From a virus: a stretch of 40,357 bases of DNA. The position numbers were made by a program, and so were the translations under genes. The DNA lies in the IMG/VR virus record IMGVR_UViG_3300045988_095878, positions 1 through 40,357 of that record; one strand, written 5' to 3'. Shown piece after piece: positions 1,914 to 29,549 of the stretch. The notes beneath the pieces were generated by a model. It searched no databases. It was not told the DNA's origin and saw only the letters and a list, made by a program, of their open reading frames with translations. Position 1 is the stretch's first letter, and the number at the start of each line of letters is the position of its first letter.

Positions 1914-2016
1914 TTTTCTGTTCTCCTCTCGGATAGTTGATGCACTTCGGGTTTCGGCAGACCCATTTTGTCGCGTTCGTCTTGGTCATTTCAATGCCGC
2001 ATTTTGGGCACTTCAT
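1906..2016 (-). CDS. 36-aa zinc-ribbon microprotein (MKCPKCGIEMTKTNATKWVCRNPKCINYPRGEQKNG)
   Basis: Hand translation. It has CxxC...CxxxxC spacing. Its ATG overlaps the portal stop (ATGA) and its stop overlaps the next gene start (AATGGCTAA). It is below the ORF-track length cut-off. Confidence 0.5.
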   Translation of the reverse strand: MKCPKCGIEMTKTNATKWVCRNPKCINYPRGEQKNG

Positions 2017-3887
2017 ACCGGCGCACCCCCCAGCATCGGGAGACTCTGCGCCCCCGGTATCGCTCCCTCAAGGCTCGCCGCGTCAATACCCCCCTGTGAA
2101 AGGCTCCCTTGTGTAAAGGGAGCTGTCGCCGCAGGCGACTGAGGGATTGCAGTCTCCGGCACCCCGAATTTCCGCTTCCATTCATCAATGATCTCCTGCT
2201 TGCCCGGCAGGTCGATAAGATCGAGCTGCGCTGCGTAGAGCTTCCAGTTGTCCGCCGTGATCTGGCTCTGCGTGAGCGCCTGCAGTGCGCTCAGCGTCTG
2301 CGCCTTGCCGTGGGCAATGCTGTCTCCCGCCGTGATCGTCACGTCCACCCGGGGGAAATACTCCCATTCGTCGCGCACAATGTTTCCTGCCATGTCCATC
2401 ACCGCCGGCATGACCGCCGTGAAGCTGTCGGCGTTGAACGGCATAGCCTGCGCCTCGCGGTCCTTCAGCTTGTCCGCGCCGATGTACAGCATCCGGTCGT
2501 CGTCGAAGAACTCCAGCGCCGACCAGTCCAGCAGCTCGTAGAGCCGTTCAAACCCGGCGGCGCGGTCCGCGCTCTTGATGCTCGACTGCTCCTGCGCGTC
2601 CTGCCGCAGCAGGGCAATGCCCGTCGCCGTCGTGACGCGGGTCGTCTCCTTGCCGGTGTTGGTGTCGTAGTTGCGGCTCGTGCGCTCGATCTGATTTTTG
2701 AAGAACTCAATCCCCATCGCCCCGTTGGCAATGCTCTGCAAGCCGCCGAGCCGTTGCACGCCGCCCATGCGCCCCTGCTTGAGGTGTACTACCGTTCCCG
2801 GCTCGTTCGTCAGCTCCTCGCCGTCGGCGAGCGCTCCGTCCTCTACAAGCAGGATGTCGTTCGCAAGGAACGTGTCGTTCAGAATGCTCATTGCGAGCTT
2901 CCGGTCCGCGGCGTCCACGAGATCGAGAATCGCGGCAAGCTCGCTCTTGTTCCAGAAGCGGTTTTCGTCCTGAATGCGCCAGTAATGCACGAACGGGAAG
3001 AGCCTGTTCTGCTTGCACGTCCTCTTCCAGTAGTTGGGGATGTACTTCAGCTCACGTCCGCCCGCCTGCACCGAGCAGGCGACCGCCCCGGCGGGGACCG
3101 TCTCGCCGTCTATGACCGTCTCGACCGGCTGGCGGAACCAGTGTTCGAGAATCTGCACCGTGTCGTCCACGTCGTCAATCGCCGTCGTTAAATCAAAAAG
3201 TCCCGTGCGGGAGACGTAGTCCGAGCTGAGAATGTCCTCCGCGGTCAGCCCCTGCTTTTCCAGCTCCCGCTTGTAGAGCTGGCAGAATTTAACTTTGTGG
3301 ATTGTGTATACGTAGTCCACAAACTGCCCGTCCTGCAGTGTGCCGTCCCGGATGGACGGATCCGGGAAAATGGATTCCGTCGGCACATCCTTGATCCGGA
3401 TGTCGCCCTCGTTCACGCCGCAGCGCATATCCTTATCCCAGTACGCCTTCCAGAAGGCGTCGCCGAGCTTCAGCAGCCGCCGCTCGTTGCGCGTGTTCAT
3501 GTCGGACAGGCGGTTGTTCTCCGCGATATACCGCACGGCAAACTCGCGCCGCTTCGCCATCGTGCTGTCGAGATCGTCGTCGCGCCCGCGGAACTCTGGC
3601 TCCGGCACGTTCGGCTCGATCTGACTCTCGACAAGGATGTACGGGTCCGGCATGTTTGCCGGCAGCCACGGAATGTCGTTGTCGCGGCAGTATTCGATCA
3701 TGTCCCGCGTCGCGTCATGGATGCCGTTGTAGTAGTCGTTGTACCGCTCCCACTCGGTTTCTACGGCGGTACGCGCCGCCTTTGCCCGGCGGAACAGCGC
3801 GTCCGCCGTCGTCTCCCGCATCTCCTGTGTGGAATAGTCGTACCCGACGATAATATTATCGTCGGGCTTTTTCTTTCGTTTTTTCAT
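2013..3887 (-). CDS. Portal protein (624 aa)
   Basis: Size, position in the structural operon and N-terminal portal-like text (WERYNDYYNGIH, PDPYILVESQIEP, RRLLKLGDAFWKAYWD). It is the only portal-sized candidate. The C-terminal tail carries an in-frame copy of the two-hairpin repeat. Confidence 0.65.
   Translation of the reverse strand: MKKRKKKPDDNIIVGYDYSTQEMRETTADALFRRAKAARTAVETEWERYNDYYNGIHDATRDMIEYCRDNDIPWLPANMPDPYILVESQIEPNVPEPEFRGRDDDLDSTMAKRREFAVRYIAENNRLSDMNTRNERRLLKLGDAFWKAYWDKDMRCGVNEGDIRIKDVPTESIFPDPSIRDGTLQDGQFVDYVYTIHKVKFCQLYKRELEKQGLTAEDILSSDYVSRTGLFDLTTAIDDVDDTVQILEHWFRQPVETVIDGETVPAGAVACSVQAGGRELKYIPNYWKRTCKQNRLFPFVHYWRIQDENRFWNKSELAAILDLVDAADRKLAMSILNDTFLANDILLVEDGALADGEELTNEPGTVVHLKQGRMGGVQRLGGLQSIANGAMGIEFFKNQIERTSRNYDTNTGKETTRVTTATGIALLRQDAQEQSSIKSADRAAGFERLYELLDWSALEFFDDDRMLYIGADKLKDREAQAMPFNADSFTAVMPAVMDMAGNIVRDEWEYFPRVDVTITAGDSIAHGKAQTLSALQALTQSQITADNWKLYAAQLDLIDLPGKQEIIDEWKRKFGVPETAIPQSPAATAPFTQGSLSQGGIDAASLEGAIPGAQSLPMLGGAPV
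2101..2149 (-). repeat. Two-hairpin repeat element, copy 1 (inside the portal 3' end)
   Basis: aggctcccttgtgtaaagggagctgtcgccgcaggcgactgagggattg. Hairpin ctccctt/aagggag plus hairpin gtcgcc/ggcgac, followed by the conserved tail ctgagggattg. Confidence 0.8.
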
Positions 3888-4626: not shown

Positions 4627-5235
4627 TTATCCTGCCTCCCTGTTTCCGAGATACCATTCCTTGATAACTGCACTGTCGTGGGCATTCTGATAGTCGAAGA
4701 TCCGCAGCGTCGGTTTGTTGGACGCGCTGTACGTGAACGTGAGGGACGCCGTAGCGTTCTTGGCGAGGTTAATATCCTTGCTGCCGTATTCCATTCGGCT
4801 GTAGGAGGATACCCGCGTCACGTTCCCGCACGCCACGGAGAGCTTTGTATCCTGCGAGCAGTCAATATCGCTCTTGGCATAGCTCCAGTTTTCGCCGCTG
4901 GTGGACAGCGTAAAGGACGTAGCGCCATACGAGATGCCGCCCGTGCCGGAATGCGTGATGGTGGCGCCGAGAACGCCGTACCAGTAGATGAAACGCTCGG
5001 GGCGCAGACGTGCCGTTGTGTCATCGCTGCACGGTTTGGAGAGCGTCATGCCGGAAAGACCGGCGCTGAACTGGTACACGCCCTTTTTCACCATGGCAAA
5101 GCCGACGCCGCTGTCGTCCAGCGTGACCGTGCCGGTCTCCGCACCCGTGTAGGTGATAACCTCGCCTTTGCCGCCGTAGAGCGTGAGCGTGATCTTTCCG
5201 CCGCCTCCGGCACCGCAGTTTGTTCTTCCGATCAT
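4627..5235 (-). CDS. Hypothetical tail-associated protein (202 aa), Gly/Ser/Thr-rich and beta-rich
   Basis: RBS ggaggtgagagc precedes the ATG. The gene lies between the fibre gene and the endolysin. No motif was recognised. Confidence 0.5.
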   Translation of the reverse strand: MIGRTNCGAGGGGKITLTLYGGKGEVITYTGAETGTVTLDDSGVGFAMVKKGVYQFSAGLSGMTLSKPCSDDTTARLRPERFIYWYGVLGATITHSGTGGISYGATSFTLSTSGENWSYAKSDIDCSQDTKLSVACGNVTRVSSYSRMEYGSKDINLAKNATASLTFTYSASNKPTLRIFDYQNAHDSAVIKEWYLGNREAG

Positions 5236-5239
5236 GCTC

Positions 5240-6100
5240 TCACCTCCAAAGAAGAATCGTCGGGATCGTCACGGCGGCGGACGGAATCTCGGCGGCGTAG
5301 ATATACACGCCCCCGGCATAGCTCTCCGCCACGGGAGCGAACGTCCCGCTCATGGCGTCCGTCACGCCGAACACGACCTCCGGCGTCATCGCTTCCGCCG
5401 CGCCCGTAAGAGGCACGGCGGCGCGGTACGGAAAGTCCCCGTAGGTCTCGTCCGCGGTGAACGACGCCGCTTCCACGGTCGTATTCGTGAACGTCAGCTT
5501 CACCGCGTCGGCGGCGAGCTTCTGCGCCGTGACCGCACCCGGGGAAATATGCGTCGAAAGCACAGCGAGCGCCGCGAGCTTTTCCGCCGTGACCGCCGCC
5601 GCGGCGAGCTTTTCCGTTTCGACGCTGCCCGCGCCGAGCTTATCCGCGCCCAGCACCGGAACGTGCGCCGCATCCAGCACGGGGAGACGCGAAAGCTCCA
5701 GCGTGCCGGATACCACGTCCGCGGCGGCGTGCGTATGCTCCGCCGCCGCGCCGCCGAGGGCGACGGCCGTCACCTCCGCAGCGAGCTTGGCAAGCGTGAT
5801 GCTCCCGTCCGATACGCTGCCCTGCGTCACGTCCTGCATCGCCTGTGCAAGCTGCTCGAGCGCCGTTTGGATGTCGGACGCCGAAAAGCCGGGGATCGTC
5901 GCAACGCCGAGCTGCGCGGCGCACCCGCTGCCGGTCAGCTCGTCGAGCAGCGCGTTGAATTTCTCCCGGACGACCGCCGTGACGAGCGCGTCGAACACCT
6001 TCTTGTTCTGCGCCGCCGTTCCGGTCAGCTTATCCGCCTGACTCTGCACGCCGTTTGCCGCAATGGCTTCCTGCGTAATCTTCTGTTCCTGTATGCTCAT
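5240..6100 (-). CDS. Tail fibre / receptor-binding protein (286 aa)
   Basis: Reiterated fibre-type motifs (ITLAKLAAEVTA, VETEKLAAAAVTAEKLAALAV, VTAQKLAADAVKL). It sits downstream of the nozzle-like gene. Confidence 0.6.
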   Translation of the reverse strand: MSIQEQKITQEAIAANGVQSQADKLTGTAAQNKKVFDALVTAVVREKFNALLDELTGSGCAAQLGVATIPGFSASDIQTALEQLAQAMQDVTQGSVSDGSITLAKLAAEVTAVALGGAAAEHTHAAADVVSGTLELSRLPVLDAAHVPVLGADKLGAGSVETEKLAAAAVTAEKLAALAVLSTHISPGAVTAQKLAADAVKLTFTNTTVEAASFTADETYGDFPYRAAVPLTGAAEAMTPEVVFGVTDAMSGTFAPVAESYAGGVYIYAAEIPSAAVTIPTILLWR

Positions 6101-10390: not shown

Positions 10391-11062
10391 TCATGTCAGC
10401 GCATGACCGATGACCATGAGCTTCACGGTGCGTCGGTCGTAATCGTGACCGACGCAGCGCAGCTTCGTCGCGCCCGCCGCTGCGAGCGTCAGACCCGTGC
10501 GCTTGTCGTTCAGACTCGCGATGCTGCCGATGGCTGCGCCGATCACGGGGTATACCTCGTACACGTCGCCGGCGCTCGGCGTGCCGCCGCTCGCCTTGGT
10601 CATCACCGTGCCGGTCTTCGTGTAGTCCGTCACAACGATCTGTGTGCCGATCGCGTCCGTGTTGGCGCTGCTCGCGGCTTTCTCGCGCAGCACCAGCACC
10701 GCGCTGTTGAAGGCGTCGTCCGCCGCGGCGGCGTCCACATCGCCCTCGGCGGGGACAATGGTCGTGGCGCTGCCGGAAGCCGCCTTGATCGTCGGCACGG
10801 GGCATTCAAAGATCAGCGTCGGGTTGTCGCATACCTTGATCTCCGTGCCGTTTGCACGCAGATTCAGCGCGTCCTCCGTGCCGGAGTGGAACTCTGCGGC
10901 AATGCCGAGAATCGCTCCGGTCTCCTTCGCCGCCGCAAGCGTCACCTTGCCGGCCGCGATCTTTACAACGGCGCCCGCGTCAATCGCAGTCGCCGCGTCG
11001 ATGGGATAGTTGTGGGCGGTCTGCAGCACGCTGCCGCCGTCCACGTTCTGGATAGGATGCAT
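10391..11062 (-). CDS. Head decoration-like protein (223 aa; tandem DUF2190-like segments, tentative)
   Basis: It lies between scaffold and capsid, like lambda D. Motifs IDAGAVVKIAAGKVTLAAAKETGAILGIAAE and a second similar half are present. Confidence 0.45.
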   Translation of the reverse strand: MHPIQNVDGGSVLQTAHNYPIDAATAIDAGAVVKIAAGKVTLAAAKETGAILGIAAEFHSGTEDALNLRANGTEIKVCDNPTLIFECPVPTIKAASGSATTIVPAEGDVDAAAADDAFNSAVLVLREKAASSANTDAIGTQIVVTDYTKTGTVMTKASGGTPSAGDVYEVYPVIGAAIGSIASLNDKRTGLTLAAAGATKLRCVGHDYDRRTVKLMVIGHALT

Positions 11063-11077
11063 ATTTTTCTTCTCCTT

Positions 11078-11866
11078 TCAGCGTTTCAAAAATTCCTTTG
11101 CGGTCATTTTCATCTGCGGATACTCTCGATTCCACTCGTCGAGCGCCCGCTGCTGGGCGGCCGTCAGCCCCTCCGATACGCCGCCGCTTCCCGCTCCCGT
11201 GGAGCGCTCCGCTTTCTCGGCGCTTTTTCCTACCGCCTTTCCTACGGCGTCCTCTCCGGCAAACTCCTGCCAGTCCTCGTAGAGCTCGCTCAGCGGCTCA
11301 CGTCCGTACCTGCTCCCGCAGAACTTCCGGAACTTCGCATTGCCGTCGAGCTTGGCAAGATCCACGTCCGGGTGGCTTCTCACGAACGCGGCAGCGTCCT
11401 GCCGCACCCACTCGTTGTGTCTATCCTCCTCGGCTCTGACCTTGTCCTGCGCGGCTTTCTCGCGCTTCTGCTGCCGGAGCGCCTCCTTGGCGTCCTCTTC
11501 CTCCTCCAGATCCTCAACGGTCCGTCCCGATTCCTCCGCGGCGGTTTGCAGCCGCTTCCGGCGCACCCGGTCGGCGTATGCCTCCAGCCCGTCCAGCGAG
11601 TCTACCGCGTCGCCGCCGTCCTCGGTCATGCCCAGCTTGGCGAACGCCTTGCGGAATCGGTCCTGCGCACGCTTGAATCCGGCGTCCTCTCCCGCCTTGC
11701 GTGCCGCCTGGAATCTGGCGTTGTCCTCCCGGCTCTGTCTGGCAGGGTCGGCGGTCTCCTGCTTCTTTTCGCCTGCGGGTTCTCCCGCTCCTTCGCCGGT
11801 CTCTGCGGATACGGCTCCGCCCTCTGTTCCCTCGTCCAGAGTTTCGTTTTCCATGTTCTCGTCCAT
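11078..11866 (-). CDS. Scaffolding protein (262 aa from ATG 11866)
   Basis: Highly acidic and coiled-coil, immediately upstream of the capsid genes. ATG follows gaaaggacccac. The longer track ORF (to 11977) has no RBS. Confidence 0.7.
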   Translation of the reverse strand: MDENMENETLDEGTEGGAVSAETGEGAGEPAGEKKQETADPARQSREDNARFQAARKAGEDAGFKRAQDRFRKAFAKLGMTEDGGDAVDSLDGLEAYADRVRRKRLQTAAEESGRTVEDLEEEEDAKEALRQQKREKAAQDKVRAEEDRHNEWVRQDAAAFVRSHPDVDLAKLDGNAKFRKFCGSRYGREPLSELYEDWQEFAGEDAVGKAVGKSAEKAERSTGAGSGGVSEGLTAAQQRALDEWNREYPQMKMTAKEFLKR

Positions 11867-12031
11867 GTGGGTCCTTTCTGCGACTGTACTGCCGTCGCCG
11901 CGATGTATTTTTTTGCTGATTAAAGGGTAACCCGCAATATCTGTCCTGTGCCGACAACTTCTTTGTTTACTTTTCACGAATCGTCAAACCCGTTGGAATA
12001 ACAGGCGGTTCCGGCTCCGAAAAATGAAAAA

Positions 12032-12058
12032 CCGGAGCGGTTTCCCGCTCCGGCTCAA
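12032..12058 (-). terminator. Intrinsic terminator oriented for the minus strand
   Basis: ccggagcgg-tttc-ccgctccgg (12032-12053). On the minus strand the hairpin is followed by tttttcattttt. Confidence 0.6.
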
Positions 12059-12248
12059 AAAACACTGTGAATTTTTACCCGTTTGTATACTCGTCATTCG
12101 TGGCACATGCAGGATCTTCGCTGACGGGTACAACGGCAATATCGCACCTCAGCGCCCCCGCCACCCCCAAAACACCCTTAACAAGAACAAACGTGCAGCG
12201 GACGGTGTCCGAATCGAACACGGAGAGAATACGAAAATTTCTTTATTT

Positions 12249-12303
12249 CCCCCTTGACTTTGTACTCACATTGGTGTACAATGTAAGTACAAAGTCAAGG
12301 GGG
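12249..12303 (+). promoter_or_regulatory. Consensus-like sigma-70 promoter embedded in a 55-bp near-perfect palindrome (operator candidate)
   Basis: -35 TTGACT 12254-12259, 17-nt spacer, -10 TACAAT 12277-12282. Arms cccccttgactttgtact (12249-12266) and agtacaaagtcaaggggg (12286-12303) are perfect complements, with inner arms acattg/caatgt. Confidence 0.7.
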
Positions 12304-12328
12304 GAAGCACCCCGAAAGGAGAACAAAA

Positions 12329-12655
12329 ATGAAATTCACAAATGAATTTACTTCCGAGAATGCCAACGAATGGACAACCCTCGATCACGTTTATATCGCT
12401 CAAGACGAGCCGATCAGCGGCGACGGTGACATCTGGGAGAGCGCGTTCCGCACTCTGGAGGAGGCGAACTCCAGCGCCCGTGATCAGTGGCGGCATCTCA
12501 CGGAGCGCGAGCGCAAGCAGCGGCACATCTGGGTATTCCGCGTTGATCGCGATGATCTCGATCCGAGCAGGTCGAACGAGGACCTGCCCATTGACTGGAA
12601 GGCTTACTCCGCAGCAGGAATCGCTGACGGCGGATTCGATAGCAACGATCTTTAA
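12329..12655 (+). CDS. Small acidic protein (108 aa), unknown function
   Basis: RBS aaaggag lies 7 nt before the ATG. The protein is rich in D/E. It is the first gene downstream of the palindromic promoter. Confidence 0.7.
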   Translation: MKFTNEFTSENANEWTTLDHVYIAQDEPISGDGDIWESAFRTLEEANSSARDQWRHLTERERKQRHIWVFRVDRDDLDPSRSNEDLPIDWKAYSAAGIADGGFDSNDL

Positions 12656-12673
12656 TCAAGGGGGGAGAAAAAA

Positions 12674-13180
12674 ATGAAATTCAAACGTGTTCCGTTCGTT
12701 AACTACCCTGCCGATCGCGGGCTGCTGCGCCGCGGCTACCGATTCACCGGCGCCCCCGTGCAGTGCGACGCGGACGTGCTGGCAGACATCCGCCGCACCC
12801 GCGGCGAGAACTACGCCGCCGGGCTGCTCGATCAGCTGGCTGATGGCTTCGAGCCGATCTGCACCGGCGAGGACGGCAAGCTCTATAGCGTTCTGTTCGA
12901 CGAGACCAAGGAAGAGCCGCGGGCGGTGTACTGGCAGGAGATCGAGAGCTGCCCGATCCCGTATTCCGAGGTGCTGGCAATGCTCGAATGCGATGCCACG
13001 CATTACGCCGCCGATCAGCTCGACGACTTCATCTCCGATGCCGGATGGCAACCGGAATGGATGCGCGACTTCATGGACGATCCCGACGCCGAGGAGATCA
13101 GCGACGAGGACGAGCGCCGTATAAACGATGTTCTCCGCACGGCATGGAAGCACGCGCACAAGGGCGCGGAGGACATCTGA
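12674..13180 (+). CDS. Acidic protein (168 aa), unknown function
   Basis: RBS aaggggggag precedes the ATG. The C-terminus is very acidic (DFMDDPDAEEISDEDERR). It starts MKF like the upstream gene. Confidence 0.7.
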   Translation: MKFKRVPFVNYPADRGLLRRGYRFTGAPVQCDADVLADIRRTRGENYAAGLLDQLADGFEPICTGEDGKLYSVLFDETKEEPRAVYWQEIESCPIPYSEVLAMLECDATHYAADQLDDFISDAGWQPEWMRDFMDDPDAEEISDEDERRINDVLRTAWKHAHKGAEDI

Positions 13181-13479
13181 TGAGCAAGTCCGAACGTGTG
13201 AATCTCCGGCTCACGCCGGAAATGAAAGAACAACTCCAGCGAGCGGCGGACAAAGAACACCGCACGCTCACCAACTTCGTCGAATCCCTCGTGATCAAGG
13301 AGAGTGAAAGAATGGCGAAACTCGAAATGGCACAGATGCTTGTCAATTCCCCCGCGTGGGACGGTCTCCGCCCGGCAGAAAAGCTCGCGGCGGCATACTC
13401 CAAACAGGAGCTTCAAGATGCCTGCGATATGCTGGAGGAAGCCGAGCAGGAATATTTCGATTCCAAGTTCGGAAAGTAA
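13180..13479 (+). CDS. Ribbon-helix-helix (CopG/Arc-type) DNA-binding protein (99 aa)
   Basis: MSKSERVNLRLTPEMKEQLQRAADKEHRTLTNFVESLV fits the RHH beta-alpha-alpha pattern. Its start overlaps the upstream stop (TGATG). Confidence 0.7.
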   Translation: MSKSERVNLRLTPEMKEQLQRAADKEHRTLTNFVESLVIKESERMAKLEMAQMLVNSPAWDGLRPAEKLAAAYSKQELQDACDMLEEAEQEYFDSKFGK

Positions 13480-13509
13480 AAAAGGAGGGCTGAGAAGCCC
13501 TCCTTTTTT
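13478..13509. terminator. Bidirectional intrinsic terminator between the RHH gene and terL
   Basis: aaaaa-aggagggct-gaga-agccctcct-ttttt. Confidence 0.8.
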
Positions 13510-13511
13510 AT

Positions 13512-15167
13512 TCACCACACCCTCTTCGTCCGCTTCTGCCGCTTCACCTGGTCGATGAGCTTTTCCCGCGGCTTTTCCGGCTCCGTGAGAACCGTCATCC
13601 GCTGCTGGTGCCGTACCGCGTAGGTGATCGCCGCGCCCATCACAAGGTCGTCGTGCTTTCCTGCAAGCGCCTCCGGGCGGTGGTCCTCGTTGTAGCAGAA
13701 TACCAGCATCTCCTCGAGCAGCTCCCGGTCGGTGAACCATTCCGGGTGCGTGGAGAATACGTCCACAAGGTTCGCTATCGCCCGCGGGCGGCTCTGTTTG
13801 TCGGTGCGGAAGCCGTAGCTCTTCTTCATCTGCCGCGTGTAGGTGTCCTCCCGCTCGCGGGCGTACTGGTTCGGATACTCCAGCTCCTGCAGCTTCATCA
13901 CCGGGTATGTGGAGAAATTCGTCTCGATGGCGACGAGCGCGTCGTTGTAGTAGCGCCCCAGCGCATAGATCTGCCGGACGTATTCCGGCTCGCTGTACTG
14001 CCGCCGCAGCGCCGCCGCGATCCTGCCCGTGGCGTTGTTGATGACAATCGCCGTGAAGTAGTCCGAGCCCTCGCCCGCCGTATCTCCGCCGAGGACATAC
14101 GGAACGCCCTCCTCCGGCAGCTCGTAGAGCGTGATCGCGCCGTTCTCGCTCTCCGTCCACTCGCCGTCTATGAACTCTCCGCGCCCGGCAGGGGAGGGGA
14201 GCCGTTCCATGCGCAGCACGATCTGCTCATTGTCGAATACGCCCGTGCCGCTGTGGAGAAACGCCTCGCCCGGGCTTGCCGGGTACTCCTGCCGGAACAT
14301 ATCGAGACTCCCGCCGCAGTTGTTCGCAATGCACCAGCGCCGCCATTGCAGCTGCTCGTCAGAGAGCTGGTAGGCGTCCCGCAGCTCCCGCTCCTCCGGC
14401 GTCCACTCCGTTCCCGGCACGACCGGCATCGCGTACTCCGGGTTTTCAAACCACGCGAAGAACACCGGCTCAAAGTCGTTCTCCCCGGCGACGGCGGCGT
14501 CCCAGCGCTCCTTGAAGTCCTCAAAGCCGTTCGCCGTGCTTTCGATGACGACCATCGTTCCCGGCATGGACGGCACCGCCTGCAATATGCCCGCGAGCGT
14601 GGAGGCTTTCCCGTCCGCGCCGTCCGGCCAAAAGGCGTATTCGGAGAGATGCACGCACTGGAGCGTATCGCTGCGTCCGATGCCGCGCCCGCCCGCCGTG
14701 GCGCACCGGATCCGGGAGCGCAGCCCCGGCTTTGCCTCCCGCTCGCTGCGGAGCTTCGAGGGGTTCTCGAATACCAGCTCCTGCGCGTTCGAGGCGCGGA
14801 GCATCGGCTTCACGGGCTTCGGCAGCTCGTCATAGAACAGCTTGCTCATGCGGAACAGGTTCGCCGTCGCGTCCTCCCGGTGGGCTACGATCAGCGCGTT
14901 CACGTTCTCGCGGGTGGCGCAGCTGTGGAAGATCAAGCCCTCCGTCAGCGTGGAAAAGCCGAGCTGCCGCGCCTTGAGGATGATGAGCCGCACCGGCTTC
15001 CCGGCGTCCTGCTGCCGCTTGGCGACGGCGTATAGCTTCCTCTGCGCGTCGTTCAGCCGGAACGGCACGACCGTCCCGCTCTTCGTCTTGATCTTGAGAC
15101 AGCTCTCGATGTAGTCCTTGGCAATGCACGGGTTCACAGCTTCGAGCCTCCTTGCTTTCGGATCCAC
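13512..15167 (-). CDS. terL: Terminase large subunit
   Basis: About 541-551 aa, directly after terS. It has an ATPase-like N-terminal half and a nuclease-like C-terminal half. The more likely start is GTG 15137, which overlaps the terS stop (GTGA) and lies 9 nt after aaggagg. Confidence 0.9.
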   Translation of the reverse strand: MDPKARRLEAVNPCIAKDYIESCLKIKTKSGTVVPFRLNDAQRKLYAVAKRQQDAGKPVRLIILKARQLGFSTLTEGLIFHSCATRENVNALIVAHREDATANLFRMSKLFYDELPKPVKPMLRASNAQELVFENPSKLRSEREAKPGLRSRIRCATAGGRGIGRSDTLQCVHLSEYAFWPDGADGKASTLAGILQAVPSMPGTMVVIESTANGFEDFKERWDAAVAGENDFEPVFFAWFENPEYAMPVVPGTEWTPEERELRDAYQLSDEQLQWRRWCIANNCGGSLDMFRQEYPASPGEAFLHSGTGVFDNEQIVLRMERLPSPAGRGEFIDGEWTESENGAITLYELPEEGVPYVLGGDTAGEGSDYFTAIVINNATGRIAAALRRQYSEPEYVRQIYALGRYYNDALVAIETNFSTYPVMKLQELEYPNQYAREREDTYTRQMKKSYGFRTDKQSRPRAIANLVDVFSTHPEWFTDRELLEEMLVFCYNEDHRPEALAGKHDDLVMGAAITYAVRHQQRMTVLTEPEKPREKLIDQVKRQKRTKRVW

Positions 15168-15577
15168 TCCTCAATGCTCTCGACCGCGCCGGTCTGCTCC
15201 TCGGCAAAGTCCATGTGCTCGGTAAGCTCATGCAGCGCCCGGATAGCGCCGTTGGCGTCGAACGTCCACGTCCCGTTCGGCTCCTTCTGCCGCGTGACGC
15301 TGTTCCATTCCAGCACCGGCGTCTTTTGCATCGAGCGCTCGATGATCTCCACCAGCCGCAGCCCAATCCACGCCTTGGAGATGCCCATCTCGTCGAACAG
15401 CTTCTTCTCCAGCTTCCGGCGGTACTCGATCACGCCCGGCGTCTCCAGCAGCTTCGATGCCCGCGAGGCGGCGCTCTTAGTGCTGTACCCCGCGGCGATC
15501 GCGGCGTCTGTGGCGTTCCCGCTGCGCAAATACTCCTGCACGAATTTCTTCTGCATCGGAGTTATGTCCTTTGCCAT
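15134..15577 (-). CDS. terS: Terminase small subunit (Terminase_2-type)
   Basis: MAKDITPMQKKFVQEYLRSGNATDAAIAAGYSTKSAASRASKLL is the typical N-terminal HTH of this family. Confidence 0.85.
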   Translation of the reverse strand: MAKDITPMQKKFVQEYLRSGNATDAAIAAGYSTKSAASRASKLLETPGVIEYRRKLEKKLFDEMGISKAWIGLRLVEIIERSMQKTPVLEWNSVTRQKEPNGTWTFDANGAIRALHELTEHMDFAEEQTGAVESIEEWIRKQGGSKL

Positions 15578-15593
15578 TACTTTTTTCCCCCTT

Positions 15594-15869
15594 TCAAATC
15601 GGGCGGTACGCCGCGTAGAACTCGCGGCGCAGCTGGTACACCCGCCCCACCGGTACGCTCGTCTCGCGGCTCGCTGTCTCCGGCGTCTTGCTTTTCAAGA
15701 GAACGGCGACAAGGGCACGCCCCTCGGCCTGCCCTCGCGCTGTGATCTCTATCGTTTTCCGGATGCTCTCCTGCTCCGGCGGCGGCAGATTTTTGTATGC
15801 CTCCAGAAAGGCGTGGATGATCCTCTGCTGCCATACTGTCCCGCATCCCTTCATCGGTCGGAACCTCAA
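15594..15869 (-). CDS. Small hypothetical protein (about 86-91 aa), possibly DNA-binding
   Basis: TTG start overlaps the Rep stop (TTGA) after ggaggtg; an alternative ATG lies 15 nt downstream. The gene sits between Rep and terS. Confidence 0.45.
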   Translation of the reverse strand: MRFRPMKGCGTVWQQRIIHAFLEAYKNLPPPEQESIRKTIEITARGQAEGRALVAVLLKSKTPETASRETSVPVGRVYQLRREFYAAYRPI

Positions 15870-16660
15870 CGCCGCATCACCTCCGATTTTGCAGAGGATT
15901 TGACATTTGTTTCAGTTGAACGCACAGACGCGCCCGCGGACTTGCCCTTTCTTTCCCCGTCCTTGCGGACATAGCGTACGTAGGCGGAATAAAACCCGCT
16001 CTCCTCGTCCCGCGTTTCGGTCTGCTCGCGGATGGAAGCGTCCTTCGGGAGCTTCATCTTGCTGTAGGCGTATACCGGCACCGGCTCGGTGTAGACCGGC
16101 TTCTTCAGCCCGCGGGACGGATGGTATTTCTTTTTTCCCGCCTCGCCCCTGGCGTTGGAGATCATGTACCGGGCGACGCCGGTATAATCCCCTCGACCGT
16201 CAAGGCGGCGGTAGGTAACGCATTCCCGCTCCCACAGGGCGCAGATCAGCTCATAGTCCATCGCCGGGAGGACGATGTGGAAATGCGGGCGGGCATCCAT
16301 CCCTCCACTTTTTCTGCCTTCCGCGTATATGTACCGCAGCTTCTCTCCCGTTTTTTCCCGATACGACGTCCGAAGGCGGCGCAGGAACTGACCGAACCGC
16401 GCTTGAGCGGTCTCCCATGCGATGTCTTCCCCCGGAAAGGTGAGCGTAACCCACAGATCCCCGCACGTGAAATTGCAGTTGAGCAGACGGGCAAGGGCTT
16501 TCACCGCATTGATCTCATTCCGGAGGATCTTCTTGATGCTGGACTTCTTGGCTCTCGTTCCCCGCCGGATGCGCTGACTGCCTCTCGCCGTCGGCATCAT
16601 CGCCCGGCGGATCTCCTCCACCGGTCCGGCAATGATCTTGTACTCCATCAGTGCGAACAC
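15866..16660 (-). CDS. HUH-superfamily rolling-circle replication initiator-like protein
   Basis: Ordered motifs: LWVTLTF (motif I-like), RPHFHIVL (HUH) and GVARYMISN (catalytic Tyr candidate). Confidence 0.6.
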   Translation of the reverse strand: MFALMEYKIIAGPVEEIRRAMMPTARGSQRIRRGTRAKKSSIKKILRNEINAVKALARLLNCNFTCGDLWVTLTFPGEDIAWETAQARFGQFLRRLRTSYREKTGEKLRYIYAEGRKSGGMDARPHFHIVLPAMDYELICALWERECVTYRRLDGRGDYTGVARYMISNARGEAGKKKYHPSRGLKKPVYTEPVPVYAYSKMKLPKDASIREQTETRDEESGFYSAYVRYVRKDGERKGKSAGASVRSTETNVKSSAKSEVMRR

Positions 16661-16826
16661 TCCTTTTCCTCCTCGTCGTAACGTTATCCTTTTAACAGGT
16701 CCGTAAAAATTCGCGCACGCGCACGCGAATTATATAAGGTATCGTCGCAGGTTTTTCCGCCCTCATTTCTGCCGCCGTCCTCCGGCAGCAGAAATCAAAG
16801 CAGAAAACAAATTGTAATACGCCGCC

Positions 16827-17815: not shown

Positions 17816-18843
17816 TATCCGCACCTCCCGATCAGCGTTTCCAAGATCTTCCTTGTCCCCGCGAGCAGCTTGTCCGCCGTCTCGCCGTCCGCGCTCTTCA
17901 TCACATGCAGCTTTTCCACAGCCAGATTGAAGTTCTCCTGCGCGAGCTTCACGAGCAAAATCACCTCGTTTGCCCCGCTCTGCGCGGCCGCAAGCCGCTT
18001 GCGCAGCTCCTCGGCCTCCGCCCGTGCCTTTTCCGCTTCCGCTCCCGCGCTCTTTCCGGCGTCCTTCGCGGCGTCCTCCGCCGCCCTCAGACGCTTTTCC
18101 AGCGCCGCCACGGCTTTTTTCTTTTCCTCCGCAGCGGCGGCCTTCGCCTCCTCCACGGCTTTCTGTACCGCCGTCTCGTCGATGGCGACCTCCACCGGGC
18201 GGCTCTCCGCCTCGCGCAGCATCGCCTCCATCCTCTGCGCCGCGTCCTCGGCGTCCTCGCGCTTCACACGCTGGTCCTCGAGCGCATCCTTCGTCTCGGC
18301 AAGCTCTGCCTCGGTGTCTTTCAACGCCTTCTGCGCCTCGCTCAGCTCCCGGTCCGCCGTTTCGAGATTCCGCCGAGCCGCGTCCCGCTCGCGGATCGCG
18401 TCCTCCAGCTCCCTTGCAGAGATATGCTCGGCGTCCACCTCGCGGGCGAACTCCTCGCGCTCCTCCTCCGGCACGGCTAAAAGCCGCAAAGCATTGGAAA
18501 CGCTGATTTTTCCCAACGTTGGGAAAAGGTTGTCCACGCCCAAAAGGGAACCCTGCGCCGATCCGTACTCGGTGTAGAGCTTGAGAAAGCGGTAAGCGCT
18601 CGACTTGCTGATCTCCGTCTCGCGCTCCACCCATCCGGCAAAGTCCTCGCCTACCTTGTCCTTTGCAAGCTGGAGCCGATACCCGATCTGGATGCCGTAT
18701 TCCAGCACCATCTGCCGCGCCTGCCGCGTCAGCAGCCGGATCTCGCCGCCCAGCTGCTCCGGCGTCATGTCCTCCGTTTTGATCAAATCATTCACGCTGC
18801 ACTTGTCCTCCGTTTCCGGCCGGAGTGAATCCATTCCAGCCAT
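17815..18843 (-). CDS. DUF3102-like protein with a long coiled-coil C-terminus
   Basis: EIRLLTRQARQMVLEYGIQIGYRLQLAKDKVGEDFAGWVERETEISKSSAYRFLKLY...LLAVPEEEREEF matches the DUF3102 pattern. The exact start is uncertain. Confidence 0.65.
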   Translation of the reverse strand: MAGMDSLRPETEDKCSVNDLIKTEDMTPEQLGGEIRLLTRQARQMVLEYGIQIGYRLQLAKDKVGEDFAGWVERETEISKSSAYRFLKLYTEYGSAQGSLLGVDNLFPTLGKISVSNALRLLAVPEEEREEFAREVDAEHISARELEDAIRERDAARRNLETADRELSEAQKALKDTEAELAETKDALEDQRVKREDAEDAAQRMEAMLREAESRPVEVAIDETAVQKAVEEAKAAAAEEKKKAVAALEKRLRAAEDAAKDAGKSAGAEAEKARAEAEELRKRLAAAQSGANEVILLVKLAQENFNLAVEKLHVMKSADGETADKLLAGTRKILETLIGRCG

Positions 18844-20402
18844 GCATTTTCAAAGTTCTGTATCTCCTTGGTGCGCGCACAGTTGCACATGCCCCGGTTC
18901 TCCGTCACCGATAGCCGCTTCTCGTTGAAGTTGAGCGTATACCACGGCTCGTCCGGCTTGTCCTTCCGCCGGATAAGGAAGATCGTGAGCTCTCCCCGTG
19001 CGTGCCGCTCGGCGTAGGAGTCGACGCAGTGGTGCAGCGCCTTTCCCTCGGCGATGAGCTCCTCCTCCGTCTCGCACGGGCGGAGGAAGATATTGCCGTC
19101 CTCGAAGGCGTACTTTTTCATGCGCTCATAGCGCTGTTGAAAAGCCTCCCGGCGCTTCTCCGCGGCCTCTGCCTTCTGCCGCTCCTGCATCTGATCGTGC
19201 GCCCGCTTGAGATTCTGCGGGAACAGAACGTCGCGGTCTGTGAGATCCTCTCCCGCCATCTCCGCCATGCTCCAGTAATCCAGCAGATAGTTGAACCACA
19301 GCGAATTTTTGTACCGCTTTTTCTGCCTGGCGATATACGCCTCCGCCCGCGACGGCAGCACCCCGCGCTTCAGGCAGCCCTCCTGCTGCTCCTCCGCCGT
19401 CGCCGTGACCTCCTCGCCGAGACGGCAGGGAACGTTATATTTCCGGGCAAGCAGCAGCGCCTTCAAGCGCTTCGGCGCGTCCTCCGCGCCGTTGAAGTAG
19501 TTGAGCTCCTCCTTCGTCATCCGCAGCAGCTCGTGCGGCTTTTTTGCCTTCCATTTTATGTTGTGCAGAACGTCGGTCTTCTCCGACCAGTATTTGTTAT
19601 ATGTCGGAGAGCGCTTCCCCTCGGCGATGAGAGCCGCCGCGAGCTTTCTTGCGTTCGGCGCCATCAGCGCCTCGGCGTTTTTGTGCCGCTGCCAGGTCTT
19701 CATCCATGCGACCGGGAATCGGTATTCCGTCTCCACTCCCATATAGGTCTCCAGCTTGCAGTTGGCGCACTCCGTCTGCGCGTATATGTTCGCCAACCCC
19801 TCCGGGCAGTACACGAGATCCACGTCCAGCATCGAGTCGGCAAACCGCTTCCGCTCCTCCCAGCCGGGGATGATGTAGGTCGTGGTCATGTATTTCTTCC
19901 AGTGCCGCCAGCGTGCGGCGCTCGTCCTGCCGAAGGCGTATACCTCCCACGGATCAACGCGCCATGTGACGCGCCCGCTCTTCTCCACGTCCCGGCACAC
20001 GCGCCAGAGATAGAGAATGAGCTTCCCGCCCTGCGCCTCCGCCGTCATGGGCCATACATAGCGCTTGAGCTGTGTCGCGCTCGAAATGTGCCGCGCCTCC
20101 ACCTCCTCGCCGCACATCGGGCAGGCGAGCTTGTCGCCGCTTATGAGCGCGTCCCCGCTCGCCGGATGCATAAATCCGAACGGGGCGCTGTATCCCGCGT
20201 GCCCGCAGCCGCCGCCCGGCACATACGAGAGCTTCACCGTCTCCCCACACGCCGAGCACACGGCATCCACGCATTTGTGCCGCAGCCCCGTCAGCGGCTC
20301 CGTCTGCCATCCGGCGCGGTAGACGAAATAGTCCCGCCAGTCGAGCTTCTGCGCCTTGATCCAGTCCAGCAGCCCCTCCGGCGGCGTTTCCGAGAGAGTC
20401 AT
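18792..20402 (-). CDS. PcfJ-like protein (536 aa) with N-terminal Cys-rich regions
   Basis: The C-terminal LIAEGKALHHCVDSYAERHARGELTIFLIRRKDKPDEPWYTLNF matches the PcfJ-like domain signature. Its ATG overlaps the upstream stop (ATGA). Confidence 0.75.
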   Translation of the reverse strand: MTLSETPPEGLLDWIKAQKLDWRDYFVYRAGWQTEPLTGLRHKCVDAVCSACGETVKLSYVPGGGCGHAGYSAPFGFMHPASGDALISGDKLACPMCGEEVEARHISSATQLKRYVWPMTAEAQGGKLILYLWRVCRDVEKSGRVTWRVDPWEVYAFGRTSAARWRHWKKYMTTTYIIPGWEERKRFADSMLDVDLVYCPEGLANIYAQTECANCKLETYMGVETEYRFPVAWMKTWQRHKNAEALMAPNARKLAAALIAEGKRSPTYNKYWSEKTDVLHNIKWKAKKPHELLRMTKEELNYFNGAEDAPKRLKALLLARKYNVPCRLGEEVTATAEEQQEGCLKRGVLPSRAEAYIARQKKRYKNSLWFNYLLDYWSMAEMAGEDLTDRDVLFPQNLKRAHDQMQERQKAEAAEKRREAFQQRYERMKKYAFEDGNIFLRPCETEEELIAEGKALHHCVDSYAERHARGELTIFLIRRKDKPDEPWYTLNFNEKRLSVTENRGMCNCARTKEIQNFENAWLEWIHSGRKRRTSAA

Positions 20403-26096: not shown

Positions 26097-27323
26097 ATGT
26101 TCGACTCCGCGTTTTGCATCATTTTCTTGTGTATTTCCATCATTCTATTCGTCCGCTGGAAAAGCAGCTGCGCCGCCGTTGATGAATGGAGAAAAAAATA
26201 CACGATTTCTTTTGCCGAATGGAAAGCCCAATATGCCAAGATGGAAAAGGATTTGCTCGAAGCAAAAGGCTCCCCTACTGTACGTGCCTTAAAAAACTCC
26301 GAATTATTCGCTCGAGAACAGAAATTATTTGAAGATGAACGTAAGCTCGAAATGCAAAAGCAAACGTTTGACCAAAATATCCGCAAGATCATCTATGACA
26401 AGTCTCAGCAGTACCCTTACATTGCGGCGCAGATTGCAGACCTGTATTGTCTTTATGATGAACGCCTTGCCAAGAGCCTCGCTCAGAAAGCTCGCCCCGC
26501 TGTCCGCGCATCCGAAGACGTCGCTCGTATAGCCAGAGAAAAGCGCGAGCTTACACAGCGGGTCAAGGCGCTTGAATATCAAATCTCTGAATATGAGGCG
26601 TTTTTCCCGCAGCTATCCTCTATAGCCGATCTGACTACGAGTGAGCTTTGTGAGGCTTCTCAATCTTCTGAGGATCGCGATTCTCTGCGCGACTGGCTTT
26701 CCGATTCAGAGTATGTGTCCCTATCAGACGAAAGAAAATTCCAACTTGCTTTGGACCGGTGGCGGCGCAGGCCGCGCAGCAACTGGCAAGTTGGCCGTGA
26801 CTTTGAGCGATACATCGGCTACCTGTACGAAATGAACGGATGGAAGGTGTCTTTCTTCGGTGCGCTGAACGGCAAAAACGACCTGTGCCGCGATCTCATC
26901 GCGCAAAAGAACAGTCAAACTCTCATCATCCAATGCAAACGCTGGGCGAAGGAGAAGACGATCCACGAAAAGCACGTGTTTCAGCTCTTTGGCAGCGTTA
27001 TGAGCTACGGGATTGAGAACCCCAGCTCATCTCCCAAAGGCTTGCTTATAACTACCTGCCCGCTCTCAGACGTTGCCAAGCAGTACGCCCATGCTCTGAA
27101 CATAGACTTTGAGCAGAATTATCACTCTCGCGATCTTGACTCCTATCCGGTTATTAAATGCAACATCGCAAAAGAAGGCGAGAAGATATTCCATCTTCCG
27201 TTCGATCAGCAGTATGACCGTATCCGCATAAGCCCAGAGGCCGGCGAGAAATACGTCTCCACCGTTCGTGAAGCTATGGACGCCGGTTTCCGCCGAGCGT
27301 ACCGCTGGCACGGCAGCGACTGA
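26097..27323 (+). CDS. Membrane-anchored coiled-coil protein with a C-terminal Mrr_cat (PD-(D/E)xK restriction endonuclease-like) domain
   Basis: N-terminal TM segment FCIIFLCISIILFV and a long coiled coil. The core reads WQVGRDFERYIGYLYEMNGWKVSFFG...NDLCRDLIAQKNSQTLIIQCKRWAKEKTIHEKHVFQLFG. The region is visibly AT-richer than the rest of the phage. Confidence 0.75.
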   Translation: MFDSAFCIIFLCISIILFVRWKSSCAAVDEWRKKYTISFAEWKAQYAKMEKDLLEAKGSPTVRALKNSELFAREQKLFEDERKLEMQKQTFDQNIRKIIYDKSQQYPYIAAQIADLYCLYDERLAKSLAQKARPAVRASEDVARIAREKRELTQRVKALEYQISEYEAFFPQLSSIADLTTSELCEASQSSEDRDSLRDWLSDSEYVSLSDERKFQLALDRWRRRPRSNWQVGRDFERYIGYLYEMNGWKVSFFGALNGKNDLCRDLIAQKNSQTLIIQCKRWAKEKTIHEKHVFQLFGSVMSYGIENPSSSPKGLLITTCPLSDVAKQYAHALNIDFEQNYHSRDLDSYPVIKCNIAKEGEKIFHLPFDQQYDRIRISPEAGEKYVSTVREAMDAGFRRAYRWHGSD

Positions 27324-27432
27324 CGCCCTGCGCAAGTCGTCCGATACCACCATCCGCTCCGCGCTTGAGTTCGTCTGCAACGTCTACGAATCCTACAACG
27401 CCCTGCAAAAAGAAAAAGAGAACGGAGATTGA
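27322..27432 (+). pseudogene. Orphan 3' remnant of a second repressor allele (36 codons)
   Basis: DALRKSSDTTIRSALEFVCNVYESYNALQKEKENGD compares with the repressor C-terminus DALRKTPESAIRPALQFIREIYESYNALQKEKGSESK. 35 nt are identical (25963-25997 = 27384-27418). Confidence 0.8.
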
Positions 27433-27447
27433 CCTCCGTTCTCTTTT
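27418..27447 (+). terminator. Intrinsic terminator after the repressor remnant
   Basis: gagaacggag-attgac-ctccgttctc-tttt. Confidence 0.6.
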
Positions 27448-27456
27448 CCGTTTTTC

Positions 27457-27557
27457 GGTGCAGTTAGGTGCAAAACGGTGCTGAACGCTGTTAAACGCCG
27501 CACATGACCGCTTTTTGCCGCAGTTTGCCCGTTTATTCACAGTTTGTTCACAATTTG
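27457..27557 (+). repeat. Helically phased short direct repeats upstream of the Abi gene
   Basis: GGTGCA 27457, GGTGCA 27467 and GGTGCT 27477 have exact 10-bp spacing. TTCACAGTTTG (27536) and TTCACAATTTG (27547) are tandem 11-mers. Confidence 0.6.
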
Positions 27558-27632
27558 TTAATCACTTTCCAAACACTTTCCCATAAGATAATAGCAACAG
27601 AGCTGCTTGGAGATTTAATTGCTCCGGGGGCC

Positions 27633-27657
27633 AAGCCGAGCTTTTATGGCTCGGCTT
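27633..27657 (+). terminator. Hairpin with a T-rich tail just upstream of the Abi start
   Basis: aagccgagc-ttttatg-gctcggctt-tcttt. Confidence 0.45.
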
Positions 27658-27678
27658 TCTTTATAGGTGGGTGTACAG

Positions 27679-29018: not shown

Positions 29019-29549
29019 ATGGAAACCATGAACGAAAACGAAATGGACGTGTTGAAAAACCGCTGGAGAGAGGCGAAGAGTACGCGCACGTTCTCGGACA
29101 TTGCCGAAGCCGCCGATCTGTCGCCGAGCACCGTGGAGTATGCTTTCTCCTTCAGATCTGCAAACCCTTGCATTGATACGGTCGTGCGCATCTCCCGGGA
29201 GCTGCACGTCTCGCTCGACGATACCTTCGGCATCCTCTCGCCGAGCAATCGTTCGGAGACGGAGCTTGCCCGTCAGGACGCCGCCCACTGGAAAGCGCGG
29301 TGTGAGTCCGCCGAACGGGACGTCGAATATCTCCGGACGGTCCTCTTGATGCTCGGCGTGTTCTTTCTCGTCCTCGTCGTCTGGTGTGTAACGATGGATC
29401 TTCGCTGCACGGAGATTGGTTTCTTCCGCGGGCGGTGGAGCTTTGGCGCCGTGTTCTCGATGCTCTGCGTCGCCGTCGCCGCAGTGATGGTTGTTCTCGT
29501 CATCGTCCGCGTCTGCCGCCGCCACAGGCAGCGTAAGGAGCAGAAATAA
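29019..29549 (+). CDS. Membrane-anchored HTH protein (XRE-like N-terminus, coiled coil, two TM segments)
   Basis: STRTFSDIAEAADLSPSTVEYAFS...IDTVVRISRELHVSLDDTFG is HTH-like. The TM segments are VLLMLGVFFLVLVVWCV and FGAVFSMLCVAVAAVMVVLVIV. The start is ATG 29019 or 29028, after aaagga. Confidence 0.6.
   Translation: METMNENEMDVLKNRWREAKSTRTFSDIAEAADLSPSTVEYAFSFRSANPCIDTVVRISRELHVSLDDTFGILSPSNRSETELARQDAAHWKARCESAERDVEYLRTVLLMLGVFFLVLVVWCVTMDLRCTEIGFFRGRWSFGAVFSMLCVAVAAVMVVLVIVRVCRRHRQRKEQK

Follow-up and report, generated by a model that had tools for sequence, protein, structure and literature searches.

IMG/VR virus record IMGVR_UViG_3300045988_095878, the complete contig on record with 40,357 nucleotides (nt), called the window here, carries a plus-strand unit at positions 12254-13510, between the minus-strand terL gene and a putative scaffold gene. 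The unit consists of two open reading frames (ORF1 and ORF2) for small acidic proteins, referred to as cargo, and a gene for a ribbon-helix-helix (RHH) protein, all three of which carry the source label "hypothetical protein". With high confidence, we regard it as an accessory cassette that is mobile and represses itself. Comparison of related loci reveals an insertion. At least three phage backbones have it, at several different sites, two of which are occupied in either orientation; promoter/operator, 5' untranslated region (UTR), regulator and terminator are conserved, and the cargo is exchanged, stacked or fused. As to function, its architecture and associations are fitted best by an operon for counter-defense resembling those of anti-CRISPR (Acr) and anti-CRISPR-associated (Aca) proteins, with the RHH protein in the Aca role; we give this reading somewhat less than an even chance.

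The comparison set comprised about 120 related loci, drawn from the genomic contexts of ORF1 and ORF2 relatives and from IMG/VR scans. Two relatives (L034 and L035), with terL products 91-93% identical in amino acid (aa) sequence, are colinear with window positions 10733-12082 and 13512-16747, and hold about 104 nt in place of 12083-13511. A twin of 97% identity (L030, a 37.6-kb IMG/VR contig) has the cassette arranged as in the window. With a quite different phage lineage, the homology runs from precisely the -35 hexamer (12254) to the terminator (~13506-13513); in this second lineage the cassette adjoins a DUF7841 gene and lysis genes. Between unrelated phages the whole unit, including the regulatory parts, shows 72-97% nucleotide identity. 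The self-contained, opposite-strand moron of the preliminary description is therefore borne out, since the site is occupied or empty in close relatives and the unit has its own promoter and terminator.

The orientation of the cassette is not fixed. In four loci of the window's lineage (L121-L124), terL, promoter, ORF2, a 58-aa form of the regulator (RHH58) and scaffold are all co-directional, the reverse of the orientation in the window. Contigs with the cassette beside DUF7841 also differ, some having it convergent and others co-directional. The locus in the DUF7841 lineage, flanked by attP/integrase on one side and lysis genes on the other, is the prophage end. Across 52 distinct IMG/VR loci of this lineage, the slot may hold an ORF1 cassette, a cassette with the ORF2 domain dB and a helix-turn-helix (HTH) protein, or a 102-aa cargo; it is empty in 15 contigs (L088-L100, L102, L103), with the integrase about 320 nt away, and holds only an ArdC-like operon in five. 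The terminator hairpin (GGAGGGCT-N4-AGCCCTCC) also closes cassettes in this other lineage, and the same hairpin follows DUF7841 even where the cassette is absent. A second site in the window's lineage lies 3' of the Rep gene, where the window has 5 nt (16810-16814) versus 572 nt in L035; the insert is a sister cassette (L035 4849-5420, L034 ~4850-5420). Each phage examined holds a cassette at either the terL-scaffold site or the post-Rep site. Because the cassette occupies several other sites in both orientations, the analogy drawn earlier with the position of acr loci in Mu-like phages is weak.

Features of the cassette are listed in Table 1. The promoter buried in a palindrome, the two acidic proteins (both starting MKF), the translationally coupled RHH gene and the bidirectional terminator that the preliminary description had reported were all recovered at these positions. 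The end of the terminator is 2 nt away from the stop codon (13512-14) of terL, which is convergent with the unit; on the minus strand, the terminator comes after terL as well. The identity of terL was confirmed (phrog_2, 6e-28), as was that of terS by PHROGs and Pfam. The name "scaffold" (11078-11977) derives from position and composition, and the gene product matched no family. The Mu gpT-like capsid that had been proposed was not upheld, the only Pfam match being sub-threshold (E 0.19, 11.5 bits versus a cut-off of 20.1).

Table 1. Features of the cassette and its upstream flank in the window
Feature	Position	Strand	Description
171-nt extra stretch, backbone to -35	12083-12253		belongs to the insertion relative to empty-site relatives
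Palindrome, 61 bp	12246-12306		arms 12246-12273 and 12279-12306, 28 nt each, 93% complementary; 5-nt center
Sigma-70-type promoter	12254-12282	+	-35 TTGACT 12254-12259, 17-nt spacer, -10 TACAAT 12277-12282
Core operator TTGTAC-N10-GTACAA	12260-12281		fills spacer, overlaps -10
5'UTR stem-loop GGGG-N6-CCCC	12300-12313	+	directly 5' of Shine-Dalgarno sequence GGAG (12318-12321)
ORF1, 108 aa, cargo domain family dA	12329-12655	+	acidic, isoelectric point (pI) 4.45, net charge -12
ORF2, 168 aa	12674-13180	+	acidic, pI 4.40, net charge -18; Shine-Dalgarno sequence GGGGGGAG at 12660-12667
ORF2 domain dB (~aa 12-92)	12707-12949	+	from exhaustive HMMER search
ORF2 domain dC (~aa 100-163)	12971-13162	+	from exhaustive HMMER search
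RHH gene, 99 aa	13180-13479	+	ATG overlaps ORF2 stop (TGATG)
RHH DNA-binding domain (aa 1-45)	13180-13314	+	pI 8.2
RHH acidic C-terminal extension (aa 46-99)	13315-13476	+	pI 4.4
Bidirectional intrinsic terminator	13477-13510	both	perfect 15-bp stem, 4-nt loop, A-run before, T-run after

Regulator and cargo occur in many combinations. ORF1 is found with a 46-aa regulator, RHH46 (L001-L007 and others), or with RHH98 (L011, L110), and ORF2 with RHH99, the form in the window (L008), or with RHH58 (L121). ORF1 and ORF2 are stacked before RHH99 in the window, L030 and L116-L120. In L058 (4897-5202, minus strand), RHH99 accompanies an unrelated 102-aa protein (MKNTKADL...). Two loci from phages of 42% GC, L131 (543-950) and L173 (1210-1623), encode an unrelated 135-137-aa protein (MKKYNLSKIMKRAHEIKR...) and then a 115-aa RHH protein, and their operator, TTGACTTTGTACGYACAATGGTGTACAAT, is identical to that of window-type cassettes. 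Neither the 102-aa nor the 135-aa cargo belongs to a Pfam family. The same regulator family is found with four unrelated cargo families (ORF1, ORF2, 102-aa and 135-aa), under the same type of promoter/operator.

The window cassette is itself a mosaic, 92% identical to L011 over 12254-12643 and 92% identical to L008 over 12664-13506. The start context AAAAATGAAATTCA, common to ORF1 (12325-12338) and ORF2 (12670-12683), is a likely point of recombination. Two members of the ORF2 cluster preserve further rearrangements: P0100 (277 aa) is a natural in-frame ORF1-linker-ORF2 fusion, and in P0105 the first 7 residues of ORF1 precede ORF2, the footprint of a deletion. The exhaustive HMMER search also found dB (~90 aa) and dC (~80 aa) each as a stand-alone protein, further fusions of both, and a tandem duplicate of dB. 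Fusions to an XRE-type HTH domain take the forms HTH+dB (P0034), dB+HTH (P0061) and dC+HTH+dA (P0046), the ORF1-like domain of the last being 35% identical to ORF1 (E 2e-11). A cytochrome, P0032, was rejected as a false positive of this search. In the sister cassette, the gene for a dB-only protein (~90 aa) comes first and overlaps that for a 57-aa XRE-HTH protein, often with the same terminator.

The pre-cassette stretch contains a 48-aa minus-strand ORF (12075-12221), with the C-terminus ...ATNDEYTNG. The truncated RHH58 in L121 (3630-3677) ends ...ATNDEYKSG, from DNA homologous to this ORF. One breakpoint of an inversion or recombination is therefore inside the RHH gene, just past the RHH domain.

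The promoter hexamers match the consensus at 10 of 12 positions, and no other such site is present in 11000-15000. The hexamers alone are not significant, because shuffled sequences give 1.0 site on average; the same promoter is kept in all related cassettes. Transcription would start near 12289. A near-perfect right arm of the palindrome is peculiar to the window and to L030, its near-twin; other RHH cassettes have an imperfect palindrome, with GTACTCACAAGGACAA as the right arm and about 15 of 21 positions symmetric by manual count. The pattern TTGTAY...KTACAA across the spacer and -10 is kept in every RHH cassette, and the 40-kb window has a single copy of its core, TTGTAY-N10-KTACAA, versus 0.13 expected. 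An additional GTACAA half-site lies at 12291-12296. A scan of IMG/VR with the promoter/operator pattern returned mostly chance AT-rich promoters, L131 and L173 being the only new true cassettes.

Two other roles for the palindrome were rejected. As a single-strand (Frpo-like) promoter, its 28-bp stem is too short for a duplex covering -35 and -10. As a transcribed terminator, it has no T-run after it, and the start is expected inside the right arm. Most cassette types have a 5'UTR hairpin in the same place, with stems that differ and are still paired (GGGCG/CGCCC, GGGCA/TGCCC, GGGGC/GCCCC); it is lacking in L058 and degenerate in L003. This hairpin is reminiscent of RNA motifs reported in acr-aca 5'UTRs.

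RHH profiles are matched by the N-terminal part of RHH99, which places it in the ribbon-helix-helix (MetJ/Arc/CopG) superfamily. The best Pfam match is TacA1 (1.1e-7, 32.1 bits, cut-off 21), followed by RHH_5 (1.4e-5, 25.2 bits, just below the cut-off of 26), Arc (0.0037) and RHH_1 (0.015). RHH99 also matches phrog_10531 over its full length, the KacA antitoxin in PDB (E 0.0019), and a RelB-like NCBIfam family (0.018). RHH46 matches Arc over its full length (3.6e-6). Of the 80 positions in the TacA1 profile, RHH99 matches 1-40. RHH46 lacks the C-terminal extension, and the 58- and 115-aa forms have a different sequence in its place. We considered that the extension might be specific to ORF2 and rejected this, because L011 pairs RHH98 with ORF1 and has no ORF2.

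Regulator and operator change together. In L058, the β-strand of the RHH protein reads EQLNIRV instead of ERVNLRL, and the inner operator is also altered, to TTGTATAGC-ATTT-GCTATACAA. The HTH sister cassettes have an unrelated palindrome, ACCACCAA-N-TTGGTGGT (ACCACC..GGTGGT), at the same position in the promoter. It is chiefly from this covariation of regulator type with operator that we take the trailing gene to encode, very probably, an autorepressor of the cassette's own promoter. The core operator at 12260-12281 is the predicted binding site of the RHH repressor.

ORF1 has 12 homologs with 53-92% identity, and ORF2 has four close relatives. The dN/dS values of 0.06-0.48 (ORF1 0.06-0.48, ORF2 0.17-0.37) show that both are real genes under purifying selection. 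Lower values were obtained for the RHH domain (0.03-0.05) and the DUF7841 backbone gene (0.03-0.04). The cargo is far more divergent than the backbone, and selection on it is more relaxed among close relatives, where its dN/dS reaches 0.34-0.48 versus 0.03-0.04 for the backbone. In one phage pair, the dN of ORF1 was 0.198 versus 0.017 for DUF7841, a difference of about 10-fold.

Searches of ORF1 and ORF2 against Pfam, annotated PHROGs, NCBIfam and PADLOC gave nothing meaningful, the only matches being PADLOC CARF_RelE (E 0.025) and TruB (E 0.007), both far below the cut-off. Domain dC corresponds to phrog_25567, a PHROG family without an assigned function. PDB sequence-profile searches with dA, dB and dC returned no match. 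Structure prediction of both acidic proteins had been proposed as a test for DNA mimicry; AlphaFold2 on the shallow alignments gave models with predicted local distance difference test (pLDDT) scores of 54.4 and 51.5, which were unusable for this assessment. The best matches of these models in a Foldseek search of PDB had E 0.25-0.35 and TM scores below 0.4. A likeness of ORF1 to AcrIF9 in this search (rank 10, E 1.3) was dismissed as meaningless.

A blastn search with the locus and tblastn searches with ORF1 and ORF2 against GenBank phages found only one unannotated fecal phage fragment, matching dB, and tblastn of ORF2 against plasmids found nothing. A scan of GTDB genomes with dC yielded one Eubacteriales metagenome-assembled genome, and a metagenome scan with dC only near-identical copies. 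The window contains no further copies of dA, dB or dC, including in its 2555-aa polyvalent protein.

An ArdC-like protein of 282 aa (ArdcN 2.9e-24; MPTase-PolyVal, a zincin, 7.2e-36) is encoded close to the cassette in the second lineage, either right after it or right after DUF7841. In nine contigs its gene lies directly 3' of co-directional ORF1 cassettes. Two tiny ORFs lie upstream of the gene, which has a promoter to itself (L072 5141-5986, L015 6025-6873, and 20 further loci).

A small autorepressor that closes a variable accessory operon is a known kind of system, and its near counterparts include Aca14 operons. Aca14 is an RHH protein very recently demonstrated in the Aca role, with an inverted repeat over -10, for which electrophoretic mobility shift assays showed binding and reporter assays showed repression (bioRxiv 10.64898/2026.07.27.740549). 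The Aca14 operons of Pasteurella multocida (csx20-aca14, acr-rhh) share with the cassette a strong promoter, an inverted repeat over -10, variable cargo and an RHH gene in last position. Their operators, TGTATATG-AAAT-CATATACA and TGTATATG-TAAT-CATATACA, resemble the L058 operator in half-sites, 4-nt spacing and position over -10. The proteins themselves are no more alike than RHH proteins in general: Aca14 and RHH46 are 29% identical over 34 aa (pairwise E 0.013), and BLASTP gave no alignment of Aca14 with RHH99 (E 9.9). The Aca14 sequence used was a translation of the printed construct in the supplement, in which one base had been restored. Aca14 scores as RHH_1/CopG and has a 27-aa N-terminal extension, whereas the cassette RHH scores as TacA1/Arc/RHH_5 and has a C-terminal extension. 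Unlike the Aca14 operons, the cassette includes no known Acr among its cargo, its probable hosts are high-GC gut Clostridia and not Proteobacteria, and there is no second regulated operon in the window, since the operator is unique there.

AcrIE10 of Klebsiella plasmids is an RHH domain fused to an Acr domain; the N-terminal RHH binds an inverted repeat over -35/-10 of its own promoter, and the gene is the last of a two-gene acr locus (PMC13530269). The HTH-Acr fusions AcrIIA1, AcrIIA13-15 and AcrIF24 are similar cases. Like AcrIE10, RHH99 has a short helical acidic C-terminal domain after the RHH part, and its gene is the last of its operon. The 54-aa extension of RHH99 differs in being dispensable in nature, as RHH46 and RHH58 exist. 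A phmmer search of PDB sequences with RHH99 listed no chain named AcrIE10, the presence of AcrIE10 in that copy of PDB being unchecked. The acrIIA22 loci of gut Clostridia (CAG-217) are hypervariable prophage-end loci of small ORFs (PMC8545432). They resemble the cassette in their occurrence in human-gut clostridial prophages at the prophage/host junction, in the rapid turnover of small ORFs by recombination, and in having no dedicated recombinase; the conserved anchor of the cassette is regulator, promoter and terminator, and not an Acr. The cassette sequence was not found in the part of that study's supplementary sequences that the search covered.

The best RHH matches bring to mind the toxin-antitoxin systems TacA-TacT and KacA-KacT (DUF1778 RHH plus GNAT), in which the promoter is autoregulated through a palindrome, as is proposed for the cassette. 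The cassette differs from these systems in that it has no GNAT toxin, its RHH gene is last and followed by a terminator, the toxin-binding C-terminus of TacA is unmatched, and its cargo is interchangeable.

Classical morons are promoter-gene-terminator units between phage genes, and P22 immI places the RHH repressors Arc and Mnt within the late region. The cassette is similarly an autonomous unit between two late genes, with a small RHH protein and an operator overlapping a strong promoter. It departs from both in that the regulator is last and not first, and that the whole unit is a reusable chassis for different cargo.

Several observations favor the Acr/Aca-like reading. The cargo varies beside a conserved small regulator, which is the hallmark of Acr/Aca loci. 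Regulation of acr operons by RHH proteins is now on record (Aca14, AcrIE10). The ArdC-like anti-restriction gene is a frequent neighbor, the cargo is acidic, and its dN is some 10-fold higher than in the adjacent backbone gene. Elsewhere the cargo domains are fused to HTH domains, like bifunctional Acr-Aca proteins, and the recognizable defense genes (Mrr_cat, Abi_2) lie apart from the cassette, in the lysogeny module. The acr-aca operon logic invoked in the preliminary description holds for the architecture and for the variable cargo beside a conserved regulator; for the function of the cargo proteins, none of which matched an anti-defense protein, it is tentative.

A second group of observations weighs against a counter-defense role. 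None of the cargo resembles a known anti-defense protein in Pfam, PHROGs, NCBIfam, PADLOC or PDB, AcrIIA22 is absent from the window and all fetched loci by tblastn, and the structural searches gave no clue (pLDDT 54 and 51, best Foldseek E 0.25-0.35). The 102-aa cargo, with a pI of 5.9, is not markedly acidic. The scan of GTDB representative genomes with ORF1 found no match. By sequence, the RHH protein falls outside the Aca14 family, and its proposed action as a repressor rests on covariation. Finally, a prophage-end position and an autonomous promoter and terminator are equally typical of morons for lysogenic conversion or defense.

This last point leads to the first alternative, that the cassette is such a moron, expressed from the prophage, with the RHH protein keeping it at a homeostatic level, and that its cargo protects the lysogen, by superinfection exclusion or by abortive or other defense, or alters host physiology. 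The place of the second-lineage cassette between attP/integrase and lysis genes is a classical conversion locus, the unit has its own promoter and terminator, 15 related contigs without it attest to its accessory status, and these phages do carry defense genes (Mrr_cat, Abi_2). We nevertheless consider it unlikely. No PADLOC match was below E 0.025, and a cargo that is small, soluble, acidic, without enzymatic motifs, and freely stacked, fused and swapped is unusual for defense effectors. Moreover, the window unit lies inside the late region, the unit in L121 is co-directional with the late genes, and the neighboring gene is an anti-restriction gene and not a defense gene.

The fusions of dA, dB and dC to XRE-HTH (P0034, P0061, P0046), and the constant pairing of cargo with a small DNA-binding protein, could also be read as signs of a regulatory module, with P22 immI, in which the RHH protein Arc controls an antirepressor, as a parallel. 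The cargo proteins would then be partners of DNA-binding regulators (for example, anti- or co-repressors), the phage's own or those of a co-resident prophage, and would tune lysis-lysogeny or inter-phage competition. RHH46 is too small to include a partner-binding domain, however, four cargo families without relation to each other have this regulator in common, and an antirepressor made constitutively, if at a damped level, against the phage's own repressor would destabilize lysogeny. HTH-cargo fusions are equally known among bifunctional Acr-Aca proteins (PMC13530269), and we regard a regulatory module as improbable.

A type II toxin-antitoxin system in reverse order, the alternative named in the preliminary description, would make ORF1 and/or ORF2 toxins and the RHH protein a TacA/RelB-like antitoxin autoregulating the operon; despite the antitoxin families among the best RHH matches (TacA1, KacA, RelB-like), the palindromic operator in the promoter and the translational coupling, it is very improbable, because neither ORF1 nor ORF2 matches GNAT or any other family of toxins, the antitoxin matches are confined to the DNA-binding part, RHH46 lacks a neutralizing tail and yet partners ORF1 in most loci, one RHH type serves four unrelated cargoes with the C-terminal extension assorting independently of cargo, and the cargoes are acidic and not basic, dB also pairing with an HTH regulator.

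The cassette may work as follows. Host RNA polymerase would fire the near-consensus promoter on entry of the phage or in the lysogen, and the transcript would yield ORF1, ORF2 and the translationally coupled RHH protein. RHH dimers would then fill the TTGTAC...GTACAA half-sites, which extend over the spacer and -10 into the start region, and would damp the promoter to a low, constant output. Such low expression would cap the cost of the cargo and, in the window phage, also limit collision with convergent late transcription from terL to capsid, while the terminator would insulate the unit on both strands. In the least certain step, the acidic cargo, with its new domain families dA, dB and dC, would bind and block a component of host immunity. 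A further-reaching version is speculative and, in our view, rather unlikely: the unit would be an integrase-free, integron-like "expression chassis" of promoter/operator, 5'UTR hairpin, exchangeable RHH or HTH autorepressor and terminator, in which phages of gut Clostridia shuffle, stack and fuse new counter-defense domains (dA, dB, dC and two or more other cargo families), and which they pass between unrelated phages in either orientation, the cargo inhibiting an immune system of Oscillospirales-type hosts.

Several features of the phage backbone were also recorded. Minus-strand late transcription, running from terL towards scaffold and capsid, must traverse two terminator-like hairpins (12026-12056 and 13477-13510) and a convergent strong promoter. 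The hairpin at 12026-12056 (minus strand) is a component of the backbone, also present in the empty-site relatives. The 2555-aa polyvalent protein is a single ORF at 32574-40241 (minus strand), with matches to Pfam LPD38 (4.8e-24), MuF_C (2.2e-22) and LPD23 (2.1e-20); virion-delivered multi-domain polyvalent proteins have a proposed role in phage-host conflict. The lysogeny module (26097-28581 and 29549-30694, plus strand) encodes Mrr_cat (408 aa, 3.8e-12) and Abi_2 (304 aa, 2.7e-43) proteins near a tyrosine integrase; these two genes are likely prophage-encoded defense. The other phage lineage likewise has a similar Mrr_cat gene in its lysogeny module. At 15866-16660, 18792-20402 and 2013-3887, all on the minus strand, the window phage encodes a Rep of the rolling-circle type (REP_ORF2-G2P; phrog_3584, 4e-49; next to terS), a protein resembling PcfJ, and a portal resembling that of P22.

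What is new here is the RHH/operator pair, the cargo domain families, and the behavior of the cassette, including its several sites, both orientations, RHH/HTH swap, stacking and fusion. If the cargo does act in counter-defense, ORF1/dA, dB, dC and the 102-aa and 135-aa proteins would represent several new inhibitor families, from phages of human-gut Clostridia that are hard to culture. The RHH regulator and its operator would then also be usable as a new bait for guilt-by-association searches, which until mid-2026 used almost entirely HTH Aca proteins. Whatever the function, these loci form an unusually clean series that shows a complete regulated transcription unit travelling between phages. 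The series includes a site without the cassette, cassettes with a single cargo gene or with two, either orientation, swaps of RHH/HTH together with operator, fusions and deletion footprints, all of which provide natural controls for experiments.

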